Assembly (NCBI GenBank): GCA_963773065.1 | Contig: CAVYZN010000008.1 | Coordinates: 192,001 to 256,000, forward strand | DNA: 64,000 bases | Direction: 5' to 3' | Origin: an uncultured Gammaproteobacteria bacterium | GTDB taxonomy: Bacteria; Pseudomonadota; Gammaproteobacteria; UBA9214 | Shown: one piece after another, positions 9,679 through 51,916 of the stretch | Position numbering within the stretch: position 1 is the stretch's first letter | Layout: each line of letters begins with the position of its first letter | Notes under the pieces: model-generated | What the model was told of the DNA's origin: nothing | The model's database searches: none | Seen by the model: the letters and a program-made list of their open reading frames with translations, nothing else | Position numbers and translations under genes: made by a program

Positions 9679-9772
9679 CACTGCTGGAGTGAAGGGAGTC
9701 GCCTGGAAGAGATGGCGGCGATATACGTAGAAACCGAAACACGACCTTAAGGGGCAGCCTTAAGCTGTCCCC

Positions 9773-9805
9773 AGACAAAAGCCCCTCATCCAGGGGCTTT
9801 TGTCT
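9773..9805. terminator. Perfect hairpin, probable bidirectional terminator
   Basis: agacaaaagcccct-catcc-aggggcttttgtct. Confidence 0.65.
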
Positions 9806-9951
9806 GTCCAGTGCAAGCCAGGTTTGTTTTTCCTTTTAGGCCATGCTATATGGCGTCAAGCGATTGATTTCATATGAGTCAATTTTTAAAAATGACCGAA
9901 AAGTCATAAGACAAACCCGACTTTTTAGCCCTCTAATTAGTAGCGACATGA

Positions 9952-10514
9952 GTGAGCGCAATGCCTGATCCTGACCCGACTTGGCTAGATTACCTCTCGG
10001 CGATCGGGGCCATCACGACACCTATTCTCGTGCTCGGTCTCACCGCAATGGGTTGGAAGATCCGCCACGGCCTAGAACGGCGCTTCGACCTTGATGCGAA
10101 ACTTCGCGAAGATCGGATCACCGCCTACAACGAGATCCTCGAGCCTTTCATCATCCTACTCATGTCGGACCCTGCATGGAAGGCGGATCCCAAAAACAAG
10201 GGCAAAGACAAGAACCAACTTGCCATGCAGACGATGCTTTCGCTGGCATATCGGCGACATGCATTCAAGTTATCTCTCGTTGGCGCTGACAGCGTGGTTA
10301 AAAGGCCTACAACAACCTCATGCAGCACGTCTTTCATCGTGGTGATGGCGATGCGGCCGACGGTACGGCCAGATCAGATCCCCGGGAACTCATAGGACTG
10401 CTTGGCAGCTTTCTGCTTGAGATTCGGAAGAGCATGGGAAATGAGACAACCACCCTCGATAGATGGAACATGCTAGAGTGGTTTCTCACGGACGCGAGAA
10501 CGATGCGGGTATAA
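9952..10514 (+). CDS. Hypothetical membrane-anchored protein, integron-cassette-like (frameshift near 10300)
   Basis: ORFs 9952-10395 and 10320-10514 join into one protein with an N-terminal TM helix; followed by an attC-like site. Confidence 0.65.
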
Positions 10515-10574
10515 ACAAACCGATGTAGCCAGACTGCGGCTACACCGCCGCCGCTGATCGGCATGGCGTTGCTG
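10510..10574 (+). other. Degenerate integron attC-like site
   Basis: TATAAAC (R''), CCGATGTAGC (L'') pairing with GCTGATCGG (L') leaving one extrahelical base, then GTT (R'). Confidence 0.55.
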
Positions 10575-10580
10575 AGGGTT

Positions 10581-10806
10581 AAAGGGGCCAGGCTCGATTT
10601 AACTCGTGGTAGCATACGCGATGGCGATCAACCAGAGCCAGCCCTCGGGCAATTGACGCTTCTATGCCCGGATAGAGTGCATGACCGGGCAACGGCGTGA
10701 GGCGAAGCCGCGTGGCAGGTCAAGGCTGAAGGAGACCACGAACGATGCGCCGCTACAGGGCAAGGCGAGTCGGGGGGATCGAGAAAAACGCGAGCATGGT
10801 CCCTTT
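10581..10806 (+). mobile_element. Non-autonomous mini-element, copy 1: TIRs AAAGGGGCCAGGCTCG / CGAGCATGGTCCCTTT around a Y1/HUH transposase C-terminal fragment
   Basis: Homologous to 21796-22025 and 23474-23661; encodes an INQSQPxGN.RFYARIExMTGQRREAKPRGR-like tail. Confidence 0.75.
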
Positions 10807-11048
10807 AGTACATCCCGTTGATCTACTGGGCTGCGATGAATCAGAACTTGCTGGTCTGCGCCTTAATAATCGGCATCATGGTCTGGCTCCCCGTTTCATG
10901 ACGCGATGCACGGCCACCCTGCGCTCGAGCGGACGCCTGGAAGCGTGATTGATGTGCGTTTGACACCGTGCTCTTTCAACCACAGTTGTCGCACCACACA
11001 GACCGAGCGTTATAACCCTTGACAAACCCCGGTGGAATAGGAAAACGA

Positions 11049-49431: not shown

Positions 49432-49502
49432 ATTAGTGTTCTGACCCTTTGATCTCTTTGGTCGCGCGGGCAGGAAGTCTTTAAGCAACCTGCTGTCACT
49501 GT

Positions 49503-50159
49503 TCATTTTTTGTCACTACCATCCATGACCTCAGCCTCTTGCCATGGGAAAGGCTTAGTCTCAGGGTATTCGTCCCTGTAGGCTTTCAACTCATCCTGGT
49601 CTAGCGGGTACCATTCGTCGTATGGGTAACGTCTGAAGAACTCACCGATACGCTCGCGGAAATGCTCGTCCGCGATTGCGTTAAGCCGTCCTGTGCGCAG
49701 CTCTCGCAGTTCTTCAAGTTCAGCCCTGGGAACGCGCAGAGTCACCATGAAATCAACAGCCATTTTCTCAGAAAAACCGACTTTGCCATCCGGCGGGAGA
49801 TAAAACCACTTCTGATTGATGCGTGCGTGCTGGGTAATCAGGTTCTTCCAGCTCTTCGCTGAAGTCGTGTCTTTGCTCTTACGCTCTACATCTTTAAAAC
49901 TTCTGATTTCGCAAAGCGTTATGTCCCGGCTACGAATAGCATCGCAATCTTGCGTAGCCACAATCGCGGCAACAGGTCGAGCGGGAACAATCATATTCAC
50001 CGGATCACCCTTTGCGGCTATCTCTGCCCATTTTGCGACACGTTCGCCGGCTTCACTGACAATGAGGACATTGTTGAGCGAGATATCGACCCGTGGAAGC
50101 CCCACAAAAATGTCTCCCTGGCGAATGGATGAGGATGTTTCGGGAAACTCATAAATCAT
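49503..50159 (-). CDS. Hypothetical protein, possible MazF/PemK-like fold
   Basis: IRQGDIF...AIVATQDCD...FYLP...VDF...GRL. Confidence 0.65.
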   Translation of the reverse strand: MIYEFPETSSSIRQGDIFVGLPRVDISLNNVLIVSEAGERVAKWAEIAAKGDPVNMIVPARPVAAIVATQDCDAIRSRDITLCEIRSFKDVERKSKDTTSAKSWKNLITQHARINQKWFYLPPDGKVGFSEKMAVDFMVTLRVPRAELEELRELRTGRLNAIADEHFRERIGEFFRRYPYDEWYPLDQDELKAYRDEYPETKPFPWQEAEVMDGSDKK

Positions 50160-50530
50160 GGCTGTTCCCCCATTGAATTCCTCTAGCAGCCTCCAATTCG
50201 GCAGTGCGAGTCGTTCTGCTCTGCCTGCTCAAGAATCTGGCGGGCTATCCGCAACGCCTCACACCGCGAGATGAATCGACCCAAAACTCCTTGGTAGATC
50301 GATATGGTAACCACAGCATCACGCCGCCTTCTTTCCAGTAACCATGGATCGGGCATTGCTGTAATAGGTGAAACAGCAAGTGAGACAGCAAGTCCGGCGA
50401 TCTTGGCTATGCGGTAAAAGTCAAAGGCTTTCTCAGTGAGTTGTTCATGGTCTCCACGCCAGAAACCTGTTGCCGGAGCCTCTGCTGTTCGCCCTCTATC
50501 AAGGAGGTCAACGGTATACGCCCTATTCAC
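50156..50530 (-). CDS. Small hypothetical protein, translationally coupled on both sides (frameshift near 50205)
   Basis: GTG overlaps the upstream stop; repaired C-terminus ...EAARGIQWGEQP* overlaps ATG 50159. Confidence 0.65.
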
Positions 50531-51296
50531 CTGAGAACCTCCTTTCAAGATCTCCTTCTATCATCTTGAAAAACCAGTCATCCGTGATCTTGTGGGCGTC
50601 ATCGAGCCAGCCTTCAAAGGCTTTGGGGATTTCTGGCAAATCGTCTACGGCTGATTCGACAGTTGTTTCCCAAACCACGGCAGGCGTATCACTCTTCTGG
50701 CCCGTTGCAAACCGAACATTGATAAGACCTTTTGGCTTTTCACACTTGAAGGAGCACTGCCATGTGAAACCGTTTGGTTTGTTTTCAACATCGGTGTCTT
50801 TGAACAAGCTGTCCGGCAACGACATCTTCAATTTCAGCTTGTCTGCTAGAAACTCAAAGAGGTTGCCAGCCCCAACGTCAAAGGCTACCGCATCGATGTA
50901 TCGCAGGATCAGATTGGTTATCTTCAGGTCTTCGACCTTGGGATGTGCATCGTATAGCTTATTTACAGCGGACAAGACACGAGGGCGGAAGTCCGGCCAC
51001 TTGTAGTCGTCTGTCGAGTTCACGGTGAAAACACCTGGTCCAACCTGTACCAACGGCCATGAGTTCGCCGCTACGCGAAACCGGTGTTGAACAAAATTGC
51101 CTACGAATTCATCAGGCATATTCGCGGTTGGGAGTTGTTCATGTTCCGGGTAGTCCGTCAGCATCCGATCAAAGAGGCGCCCAAGCAGTAGCTTGTAATG
51201 CGGATCGGTCTGAGGGCCAGGTGCAACACCCTGCAGTTTCCATCTGACTTCCAGGATCGCTTCAACGAGCGGCTTGTTTTTCAGTTCCTTGGCCAT
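50523..51296 (-). CDS. TIGR04255 family protein
   Basis: LKNKPLVEAILEVRW...LVQVGPGVFTVN...Y.W..F...LRYID; about 260 aa; GAGG RBS. Confidence 0.85.
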   Translation of the reverse strand: MAKELKNKPLVEAILEVRWKLQGVAPGPQTDPHYKLLLGRLFDRMLTDYPEHEQLPTANMPDEFVGNFVQHRFRVAANSWPLVQVGPGVFTVNSTDDYKWPDFRPRVLSAVNKLYDAHPKVEDLKITNLILRYIDAVAFDVGAGNLFEFLADKLKLKMSLPDSLFKDTDVENKPNGFTWQCSFKCEKPKGLINVRFATGQKSDTPAVVWETTVESAVDDLPEIPKAFEGWLDDAHKITDDWFFKMIEGDLERRFSGE

Positions 51297-51454
51297 ATCT
51301 ATACCTCGTTTTTTCTGTCTTTATTCATTGGCTTCATGGATCGCCTCGGCTGGATTCTCGTAGAATCTCGCCGCCACGATCTCCCGCTTGGCATGGTTGA
51401 GCTTGGCTGCGGGATTATGGATATGCGGAGAACATCAAGGGGTCAAATCACTTG

Positions 51455-51529
51455 AAACGCTTCATGGCCAGCGGAACAAAGAAGGTGCGCGAGAGCCTGC
51501 GGCATGTTTTCATCCAGCTAGATCTTCAC
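51455..51529 (-). pseudogene. N-terminal fragment of a DUF5615 PIN-like toxin with an internal stop
   Basis: MKI*LDENMPQALAHLLCSAGHEA, then cut at a TIR. Confidence 0.7.
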
Positions 51530-51777
51530 CCGGTGATTTCCGTATGGAGAGGCTGAACATCTTCTTCATGGACTAACCAGGCGGCATAGGCGAGAGCAGC
51601 TCGAATATCCTCTTCCGTCAAGCTTGGATACTCTTTCCGAATGGCCTCTAAACTCTCACCCGCCTTCAGGTAGTCCAGAATGATGGAGACCATGATCCGC
51701 GTTCCCTTGATACACGGTTTTCCATGGCACACCTTGGGATTGATGGAGACCATCTCTTTCCAATCCAACTCAGCCAT
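51526..51777 (-). CDS. DUF433 antitoxin
   Basis: [22 protein letters not shown]......YP.LT.EDI.AAL.YA. Confidence 0.9.
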
Positions 51778-51916
51778 GATTACATCCCCCTTCCTTGAAA
51801 AAGGACACCTCGCCAAATTTCCGGAATTCTAGGGGGCAAAACACTCGAAAAATATTCTCTTTCACGTGTTCTGATAATCCTTTGATCTCCACGATCAAAC
51901 CGGCAAGAAGGTCCTT

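Follow-up and report, generated by a model that had tools for sequence, protein, structure and literature searches.

Arms of TIR-flanked Y1 elements beside truncated toxin genes in two variable islands of an uncultured gammaproteobacterium

Described relatives and the repeat families of the genome

The closest described systems are the TIRtrons (TIRYT; Di Nocera et al. 2013, PMC3733652; subclass 2.1 in Quentin et al. 2018, PMC6006769). The accessible text of both papers gives GGGG[AT][CG]A[CG] terminal inverted repeats (TIRs) for this class, as the initial annotation of the locus had stated, and reports neither a proven activity of these elements nor an effect on the genes beside them. We analysed a 64-kb stretch of DNA from an uncultured gammaproteobacterium (the window), whose elements are of this already known TIRYT/TIRtron kind. 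The likeness lies in Y1 (HUH) genes of about 240 aa between TIRs with a GGGGWSAS-like core, in moderately abundant solo, dimeric and clustered TIRs in one genome, and in several families per genome. Unlike in TIRtrons, the core of the family that we call T0 (GGGGCCAG) has C at the published A/T position, fitting seven of the eight consensus positions; the window copies are internal deletions with a dead C-terminal tail, a form not described in the accessible text of PMC3733652 and PMC6006769; and the arms abut truncated toxin genes.

As in REPINs with their RAYT genes, short inverted intergenic doublets, here 23-63 nt apart, go together with a single-copy Y1 gene that lies between repeats of that sequence; we found doublets with a cognate flanked Y1 gene for families T1, T2 and T5. 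The arms here are, however, TIR-type and not GTAG/CGTC-tagged palindromes, and the enzymes have a TIRYT-type C-terminal tail. The T0 copies correspond to the MITE definition (short, TIR-bounded, an internal deletion of an autonomous element): several copies of about 230 bp have TIRs, no working transposase and a longer autonomous parent. Unlike in MITEs, that parent is a Y1/HUH and not a DDE element, no target-site duplication was seen at the ends of the T0 copies, and the genome has just three copies, besides one solo end. A further resemblance is to integrons and IS91/ISCR capture, where DNA is recognised as single strands or hairpins and small accessory genes accumulate, but there are no IntI and no regular cassette boundaries here, and no Y2 transposase in or beside the islands: the four genome matches to PF04986 all lie on other contigs, and Pfam scans of the island ORFs gave none.

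A single GGGG-W-CAG-like motif had been proposed for all end sites. The sites fall instead into four distinct TIR families of the TIRYT/TIRtron kind (T0, T2, T5 and T6), whose arms account for most of the sites named in the window; most of the coordinates first listed hold, and a palindrome at 9751 and a pair at 47234/47308 were not assigned to any family (see below). Scanning with the consensus itself gave no enrichment in the islands, with three strict GGGG[AT][CG]A[CG] sites against 3.7 expected and the loose 'GG..CAG' motif occurring once per 127 bp genome-wide; only family-level matches are above chance. Counts in the genome and in shuffled sequence were 49 and 0 for T1, 15 and 0 for T2, 38 and 10 for T5, 16 and 4 for T6, 14 and 1 for T7, and 34 and 1 for T8.

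The genome carries five or more TIR-flanked Y1 genes, and a separate repeat family goes with each of them. The T2 TIRtron is resident at 46283-47149 of contig C28 and the T5 TIRtron, with a frameshifted Y1 gene, at 19348-20165 of contig C26; resident arms of T2, T3 and T4 match all eight consensus positions. No cognate Y1 gene for T6 was found among the TIR flanks examined. Genome-wide, the resident families form intergenic inverted doublets with the spacing given above and also clusters, which adjoin ordinary genes (for example a ZIP transporter, an M16 peptidase and an ABC/MacB system).

T0 mini-elements and their full-length parents

Repeat search and alignment recovered, as mini1 to mini3, the three copies of about 225 bp with a shared tail that had been noted earlier:

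10579-10808, plus strand: mini1, MITE-like internal-deletion derivative of the T0 TIRtron, with both TIRs and a tail ORF containing a stop
21792-22028, plus strand: mini2, MITE-like T0 element with both TIRs
23470-23663, plus strand: mini3, T0 element without the left TIR; outer end of the right TIR abuts toxin tail copy 2

All three align with the left TIR and the 3' end of the full-length element, about 590 bp being deleted in between; mini1 and mini2 are 230-237 bp long. Compared with an 826-bp full-length element (locus L038), the left TIR of mini1 corresponds to positions 9-32 and its tail to positions 623-720. The tail coded by the T0 copies (..INQSQPLGNERFYARIE..GQRREAKPRGRPR..) represents the final ~60 transposase codons, interrupted by stops in mini1 and mini2, and the PF01797 profile had no match in the window copies, which hold the tail only. 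The window copies are therefore derivatives and not enzyme-encoding members of the TIRtrons. Of the TIRtron features, repeated TIR families are present and TIR flanks occur in the parents, mini1 and mini2; the Y1 domain is absent from the window copies.

The tail had been read as a Y1 transposase C-terminus, and its relatives confirm this. A query with the T0 tail retrieved 267 proteins at E<=0.001 among 367 candidates, and most of the 120 relatives listed are 243-244 aa long, with PF01797 present. The full-length T0 parents are Y1 proteins of 233-244 aa in metagenomes with the same TIR (AAAGGGGCCAGGCTCGAATT). Two of them, P0002 and P0033, match PF01797 with E-values of 3e-12 and 7e-13, and P0002 shows recognisable HVH and RYK motifs. 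The parent gene lies between AAAGGGGCCAGGCTC-type inverted repeats in 20 of the 31 metagenome loci examined, and the core motif is present at 49 of 80 parent loci.

A weight matrix made from 94 TIRs of full-length elements isolated five places in the window with scores above 0.3, namely 10581/10806, 21796/22025 and 23661 (39.6, 28.8, 27.3, 14.9 and 10.3; next best 0.3). These five sites, within 13 kb, and one solo end on C26 are all the T0 sites of the genome, and a search of 53 further genomes from the order gave no T0. A full-length transposase with the same ends, which the initial annotation had proposed to look for, exists for T0 in metagenomes, and T2 and T5 have TIR-flanked Y1 genes in the genome. 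This genome has no full-length T0 gene of its own, so the T0 copies are foreign and probably came in with acquired DNA. In sequencing run X1, a 237-bp contig is exactly 21792-22028, and positions 21792, 22028 and 23663 are points at which contigs of other metagenomes stop or part from the window, the element having other flanks there. Contigs of X2 diverge past 23663, and an X3 contig carries other sequence ahead of 23666 that, as far as it can be read, appears to be the uncut toxin across 23664.

Two islands and their cut toxin genes

Both islands are absent from the same-genus genomes compared with the window, and the core genes flanking them are collinear in three of these. At the first site, genome G003 joins window position 9677 to 24123 with 64 bp between, and homology to G002 continues to ~9750 (by eye). 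At the second, G002 joins 46810 to 51916 with 46 bp between, while other DNA occupies the site in G003 (197 bp) and G001 (1.3 kb). There is no integrative-island signature: no recombinase gene turned up when 98 ORFs of the window and 212 ORF segments of the islands were scanned with Pfam, and the single long direct repeat (20128-20607 / 23698-24167) is internal. Further repeat families were seen at the island edges (46819-46879, 52521-52615 and 9816-9938).

9751-24122, no strand: island 1, strain-specific, holding type I R-M genes in fragments, one KilA-N piece and pieces of ABC-3C, besides toxin-antitoxin modules and a Fic module
9751-9774, no strand: palindrome GGGGCAGCC..GCTGTCCCC at the left edge of island 1, with one strict-consensus site at 9765
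20097-20127, plus strand: T2 doublet remnant (full first arm, loop and 7 nt of the second arm), abutting toxin tail copy 1
20128-20607, plus strand: direct repeat copy 1, with a toxin tail of 17 codons, the HI1420-type antitoxin at 20195-20494, and 46 nt that duplicate the 3' end of the host gene
20609-20632, plus strand: solo T5 arm, outer end 2 nt from the end of repeat copy 1
20691-21813, minus strand: operon of DUF2442, HTH_3 antitoxin and Gp49/HigB-like toxin, the toxin start ~2 nt from the left end of mini2
22116-23432, minus strand: Fic/DOC module, with a second copy at C28:125490-126806 (94.6% identity)
23664-24167, plus strand: direct repeat copy 2, with a 29-codon toxin tail (23664-23753) and antitoxin (23759-24058)

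The palindrome has no related copy in the genome and could be a plain hairpin. At site 20103, 15 consecutive nt are identical to the C28 TIRtron's TIR, with five mismatches to the 22-nt T2 seed, which is beyond the threshold of the family count; site 20613 belongs to the C26-type T5 family with three mismatches. The HI1420-type antitoxin matches PF21716 (E 5e-29), and the two direct repeat copies are 92.6% identical over 476 nt. The duplicated host-gene tail stops at 20607, and the host gene itself, on the minus strand, ends at ~24121 in copy 2. Identity to the relative G004 (88% for copy 1, 92% for copy 2) suggests that the copies are an allele from a related species. Between them lies the unit 20608-23663, bounded by the outer ends of inward-facing T5 and T0 arms, with the 475-nt direct repeat on both flanks. 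Contigs of X1 and X2 have a C28-type left flank at 22116.

46811-51915, no strand: island 2, strain-specific, 47-52% G+C
47236-47308, no strand: weak inverted repeat GACAGTGTAC..GTAAACTGTC of 9-10 nt, weakly like one family and not among the family-count matches
48945-49198, plus strand: Unstab_antitox antitoxin (48945-49157; PF09720, E 2e-16), then a cut toxin
49173-49458, no strand: E1, inverted T6 arm pair round a non-coding insert, with an inner inverted repeat (49241-49259 / 49416-49435)
51433-51893, no strand: E2, inverted T6 arm pair, the right one degenerate, enclosing the next two features
51449-51517, minus strand: DUF5615 toxin remnant, profile positions 5-27 of 110 (weak match, E 0.063)
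51526-51816, minus strand: DUF433 antitoxin

Aligned with the whole module of genome G231, the ParE/RelE-like toxin before E1 ends after 5-6 homologous codons, at ~49173. The left T6 arms have one mismatch (49182) and three (51439); their right partners, 49432-49458 and the degenerate 51866-51893, were recognised by eye only. The inner inverted repeat of E1 has no second copy in the genome.

Genes had been described as cut close to the motifs, and this stands for the toxin tails starting at 20128 and 23664, the toxin ending at ~49173, the host-gene tail and, with its weak match, the DUF5615 remnant. Four toxin genes of toxin-antitoxin pairs end no more than 1 nt from a TIR arm, their antitoxins whole. 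Many apparent frameshifts in the islands may have arisen in assembly; gcvT and other conserved genes are also split in the ORF calls, so that the 'decay' of island genes is partly uncertain.

Origin of the arm-gene associations

We favour repeat insertion with adjacent deletion within variable islands, with a probability of about 0.62 for this explanation as a whole. The islands would be ordinary strain-specific variable regions between convergent core genes, carrying toxin-antitoxin and defence genes, through which non-autonomous ends of TIR-flanked Y1 elements are scattered. Arms would insert into or next to toxin genes and neighbouring DNA would then be deleted; events at toxin ends may survive because loss of a toxin is tolerable and loss of an antitoxin is not. 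The arms would both cause and mark decay and rearrangement and would not serve to collect genes. Several points weigh against this explanation: the other half of each cut toxin was not seen beyond the element, so every case needs an extra deletion, none of which was observed, and neither the unit 20608-23663 nor E2 follows simply from such a process. The choice of three of the five arm-junction coincidences in the initial annotation, the apparent frameshifts that may be assembly errors, and junctions known from the assembly alone count against it too.

That the arms are passive passengers, in islands made by horizontal transfer and homologous and illegitimate recombination, with coincidences due to chance and to selection in the initial annotation, we consider unlikely. 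The proposed clustering of truncation points near motifs is borderline in the independent set, where two of 15 homology-defined junctions lie at an arm (p 0.037); the combined p for five arm-junction coincidences (2.5e-5) includes three chosen in that annotation and is thus not independent. The identity of the repeat copies to G004 and the other repeat families at the island edges also fit passive arms. Against this stand the ends of four separate toxin genes, each no farther than 1 nt from an arm in islands where 2.0% of positions lie within 5 nt of one, and the truncation of one toxin's two copies at different points, by arms of two families. The capture platform first proposed, in which a trans-acting Y1/HUH enzyme brings foreign toxin-antitoxin and defence fragments to fixed loci as an integron-like array without IntI, is very unlikely. 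It would account for the two junctions and three toxin cuts at arms, the inward-facing arms of 20608-23663, the antitoxin gene between the T6 arms of E2, a T6-like arm in G003 at the intergenic spot of island 2, an estimated 15-fold higher density of TIR elements in the islands than on genome average, and toxin-antitoxin-type neighbours at six of 45 metagenome loci with a T0 TIRtron (loci without a control set). However, the other 13 junctions, including the outer borders of both islands, are away from verified arms, and the ends of the candidate units come from different families. Elsewhere in the genome, no same-family arm pair encloses cargo, the TIRtrons themselves excepted, and doublets also lie between ordinary genes; the second Fic/DOC copy on C28 has no TIRs beside it; and 12 of 18 toxin-antitoxin modules are more than 3 kb from any arm, intact modules being just mildly closer to arms than random positions. 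The assembly yielded no enzyme for T0 or T6, and the gene of T5 carries a frameshift. In 400 genomes of the class, pieces of island 2 are stretches of at most 243 nt, mostly of the antitoxin gene, and no arm-bounded unit recurs.

An assembly artefact, through mis-joins at TIR arms or the 475-nt repeat or through a strain mixture, would make some junctions unreal. Completeness of the genome is 90.9% and contamination 6.3%, a copy of the island R-M region at 89-99% identity lies at the end of contig C32, conserved genes look frameshifted, and, with 13% of sampled words in the best sequencing run, the junctions are known from the assembly alone. We nevertheless regard this as highly improbable: the element ends at 21792, 22028 and 23663 recur in contigs of unrelated metagenomes, the flanking core genes are collinear with three same-genus genomes, and mis-joins would not set toxin remnants in frame beside their own antitoxins. 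Almost no credence attaches to island 2 as a degenerate integron cassette array with attC sites. Its small, mostly promoterless-looking genes, toxin-antitoxin pairs and low G+C recall one, and a GCCTAAC-containing inverted repeat flanks one gene (47343-47375 / 48116-48148), but genes lie on both strands and no attC-like unit is repeated between successive genes. As the initial annotation had proposed, integron integrase is absent from the whole assembly, the best TIGR02249 match, outside the window, scoring 81.8 bits against a cut-off of 265. A gathering-threshold scan with Rfam, which has no attC model, returned two glycine riboswitch aptamers only.

If arm-ended toxins hold in a wider survey, TIR repeats would be one way in which toxins are lost and antitoxins orphaned. 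A new gene-capture platform would matter much more but is not borne out here. TIRYT enzymes may cut and rejoin DNA at arms in trans, across families, building mosaics such as 20608-23663 and E2 and preferentially disarming toxins; this is quite unlikely, and if true such break-and-join would constitute a Y1/HUH-driven rearrangement system shaping toxin-antitoxin and defence islands. The non-autonomous T0 derivative, with its identifiable full-length parents, suits an excision or mobilisation assay, and a single genome with this many TIR-flanked Y1 genes, each with its own repeat family, is a concrete lead.

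Island sites and gene content

Compared at the sequence level with same-genus genomes, both toxin-antitoxin and defence islands of the window, island 1 (9751-24122) and island 2 (46811-51915), are real and strain-specific. In one of these genomes, G003, the end of bcsS (window 9677) lies 64 bp from the end of the convergent host gene (window 24123), and two others, G002 and G001, carry about 1 kb of other DNA at this site. At the island 2 site, 46 bp separate window 46810 from 51916 in G002, and the interval is 197 bp in G003 and 1.3 kb in G001. Across 400 genomes of the class, matches to parts of island 2 were no longer than 243 nt and mostly covered the antitoxin gene.

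Island 1 contains fragmented type I restriction-modification (R-M) genes, a KilA-N piece, ABC-3C pieces, a DUF2442/HTH/Gp49 operon, a Fic module, and an HI1420-type antitoxin in two copies. The genes of island 2 are an HNH-repeat/T5orf172 gene, an Unstab_antitox antitoxin, three without a name, and DUF433. No recombinase turned up when 98 window ORFs and 212 island ORF segments were searched against Pfam. The KilA-N piece separates hsdR from hsdM (13608-13796), and the fragments of the ABC-3C three-component system (MC6, CTD10, DUF2326) lie at 17508-19700.

Mini-elements of the T0 family

Three copies of about 230 bp in island 1 belong to T0, one of several families of terminal inverted repeats (TIRs, each repeat being called an arm here):

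10579-10808, mini1, with the 17-nt terminal inverted repeat TAAAGGGGCCAGGCTCG at both ends
21792-22028, mini2, with the same repeat at both ends
23470-23663, mini3, lacking the left arm

The copies are mutually 86-89% alike. The protein tail that the initial annotation had likened to Y1 transposases is indeed encoded by their reading frame, which has stops in two copies. This tail matches 267 proteins at E<=0.001; the majority of the 120 listed matches are 243-244 aa long with PF01797, and HVH and RYK motifs are visible. A full-length transposase with the same ends, which the annotation had asked to be sought elsewhere in the genome, was found among metagenome sequences. We retrieved 80 metagenome loci encoding tail-matching proteins and examined 31 of these for flanking repeats; in 20 the gene has the same repeat on both sides, about 75 bp ahead of its start and 25-40 bp past its stop. 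The core motif was present in 49 of the 80 loci, often with extra solo copies. Relative to one full-length element of 826 bp, the mini-elements retain positions 9-32 and about 623-820, with roughly 590 bp deleted in between. Boundaries also come from unrelated assemblies: a 237-bp contig from a sediment metagenome spans 21792-22028 exactly, and in another run the contigs diverge from the window immediately after 23663. On the combined evidence of TIRs, tail, parents, deletion and contig boundaries, mini1-3 are therefore non-autonomous derivatives of T0, a family of TIR-flanked Y1 genes (TIRtrons).

A weight matrix built from 94 T0 TIRs gave five window sites above 0.3, all of them mini-element ends, and one further solo end in the whole genome (on contig C26). 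The tail query found no match and no T0 parent in 53 other genomes of the order, and one tail remnant among species-representative genomes. The T0 mini-elements probably came in with acquired DNA. Toxin-antitoxin-type genes neighboured T0 TIRtrons at 6 of 45 metagenome loci, a count that has no control set, and the neighbours that could be named by family were mostly ordinary genes.

Arm families, truncated toxins and proposed gene capture

The genome has 11 PF01797 matches, and at least five of these genes have inverted repeats of their own on both sides. Searches by Hamming scan were seeded with the repeats of resident Y1 genes and related repeats, and gave the following numbers in the genome and in a shuffled control, respectively: T1, 49 and 0; T2, 15 and 0; T5, 38 and 10; T6, 16 and 4; T7, 14 and 1; T8, 34 and 1. 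Members are mostly inverted doublets, 23-63 nt apart, clustered at a handful of loci. The neighbours of four annotated doublet clusters included ordinary genes together with mobile and defence genes. The T5 Y1 gene is frameshifted, and the T0 and T6 enzymes are absent from the assembly. These Y1 genes and repeat families agree with published descriptions of TIRYT genes and TIRtrons and of TIR families built around a GGGGWSAS core (PMC3733652, PMC6006769). Multi-family doublet clusters at C6:122-131 kb, C15:37-47 kb, C11:322-331 kb, C32:80-91 kb and C18:12.8-14.2 kb have a doublet density similar to both islands.

The terminal motifs that the annotation saw recurring in the islands are not one motif. 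A single-motif model failed, the T0 matrix catching mini-element ends only, but family-by-family searches recovered 20103, 20613, 49180 and 51436 as members of TIR families; 9751-9772 and 47234/47308 match no family.

20103, T2 doublet, second arm cut after 7 nt
20613, solo T5 arm
49182 and 51439, T6 arms, both paired with an inverted arm at a distance of 250-430 nt (partners judged by eye, the second degenerate)

Two contigs of metagenome run X2 that match 20998-21250 have ..CTATGTCAAGGGGTC directly before 20998, resembling the beginning of a T6-type arm in other surroundings.

Gene cuts at the motifs were borne out for four truncated toxins, which end at or inside TIR arms or doublets and whose antitoxins are all whole. 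The partner toxin of the HI1420-type antitoxin occurs in two copies truncated at different points, copy 1 at 20128, inside the T2 doublet, and copy 2 at 23664, the outer end of a T0 arm. A contig of run X3 has different sequence before 23666, which we read as the uncut toxin. Behind the Unstab_antitox gene, the toxin retains homology to the whole module of genome G231 for 5-6 codons and then meets a T6 arm. The DUF5615 remnant is a weak match to profile positions 5-27 of 110. It contains an in-frame stop, and its end coincides with the inner edge of a T6 arm; BLASTP did not align its 23 aa with a full DUF5615 protein.

Positions within 5 nt of an arm make up 2.0% of the islands. Junctions defined by homology edges fell within this distance in 2 of 15 cases (p 0.037), or in 5 of 18 (p 2.5e-5) with three toxin cuts that had been picked by the initial annotation. 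The islands show no excess of the strict published consensus (3 sites vs 3.7 expected), and the loose GG..CAG motif occurs once per 127 bp. In the rest of the genome, ParE, PIN and Phd modules, 18 in all, were only mildly closer to arms than random positions (1 vs 0.46 expected within 300 nt; 6 vs 2.1 within 3 kb).

The annotation had proposed that such ends accumulate foreign gene fragments as an integron-like array without IntI. The assembly does lack an integron integrase, and an integron was rejected on that ground. The capture platform itself was not supported: neither outer border of either island has a verified arm, no unit of island 2 recurred among the 400 genomes of the class, and the second copy of the Fic module, on contig C28, has no arms beside it. 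The latter also contradicts a composite transposon mini2-Fic-mini3, which was rejected since the Fic homology to C28 ends 89 nt and 38 nt before the elements. Same-family arm pairs with cargo were absent from the genome list beyond TIRtrons themselves and E2 (51433-51893, a T6 arm pair enclosing the DUF433 antitoxin and the DUF5615 remnant). A break-and-join role of the arms is kept alive at low odds by E2, where arms enclose an antitoxin and where a T6-like arm is also present in G003, and by the unit 20608-23663. This unit has inward-facing arms of two different families at its ends. A 475-nt repeat (92.6% identity), which takes in 46 nt of the host gene 3' end, flanks it.

Other repeats, assembly and core genes

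Further repeats lie in or near the islands:

47312-47367, hairpin repeat of about 50 nt, ..CGCGCTCCGATTC..GCGCGGCGGATAAAYGCTATTC.., also at C26:20178-20221 and C19:45363-45418
52521-52615, repeat of about 95 bp with ..TGCGTACTCTGCGTCTCTGCGGTGAAA.., also at 46234-46269 and 34800-34851
46819-46879, REP-like hairpin repeat ..GTCATTCCCGCGCAAGCGGGAATCC.., with about 10 other genome copies
9816-9938, AT-rich repeat of about 120 bp left of island 1, with copies on C32 (two), C6 and C17

The first was rejected as part of a TIR unit, being a separate three-copy repeat whose C19 copy has no adjoining arm; each copy immediately precedes a gene, and the three genes are unrelated. The 95-bp repeat has more than 40 genome-wide matches and many more in same-genus genomes, and partial, inverted copies stand on either side of island 2. 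The REP-like repeat marks the left edge of island 2, and G001 carries it at the same site. The AT-rich repeat is also found in several related genomes; in the relative G004 (contig C222) an IS91-type pair follows it directly, made up of a phage-integrase-like gene and a Y2 transposase. This locus was rejected as an orthologue of the left edge of island 1 and is probably a paralogous site, because a lipase gene flanks it, not bcsS.

The window corresponds to C8:192001-256000 of an assembly that comprises 3.84 Mb in 33 contigs at about 60% G+C (completeness 90.9%, contamination 6.3%). In a source-read search, the best of 24 listed runs contained 13% of sampled words. The contigs of four runs compared with the window show element boundaries and are no assembly test, and the parts they leave uncovered are uninformative. 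In simple ORF calls gcvT, lptD, bcsS and cellulose synthase are split or shortened (57723-58886, 28500-32345 and others), which suggests assembly indel errors or real pseudogenes; frameshift-type decay may thus be assembly error. The R-M region of island 1 (11884-17095) has a copy at C32:375001-379525, 78-99% identical by segment and extending into the contig end, and this could represent either a genuine duplicate or a variant from another strain in the bin. Ordinary core genes of the window include lipB/lipA, ggt, lptD-surA-pdxA-ksgA-apaG-apaH, folA-thyA-lgt, and the glycine cleavage genes, upstream of which lies a tandem glycine riboswitch (58887-59090, minus strand) with two aptamers of 61.1 and 46.2 bits.
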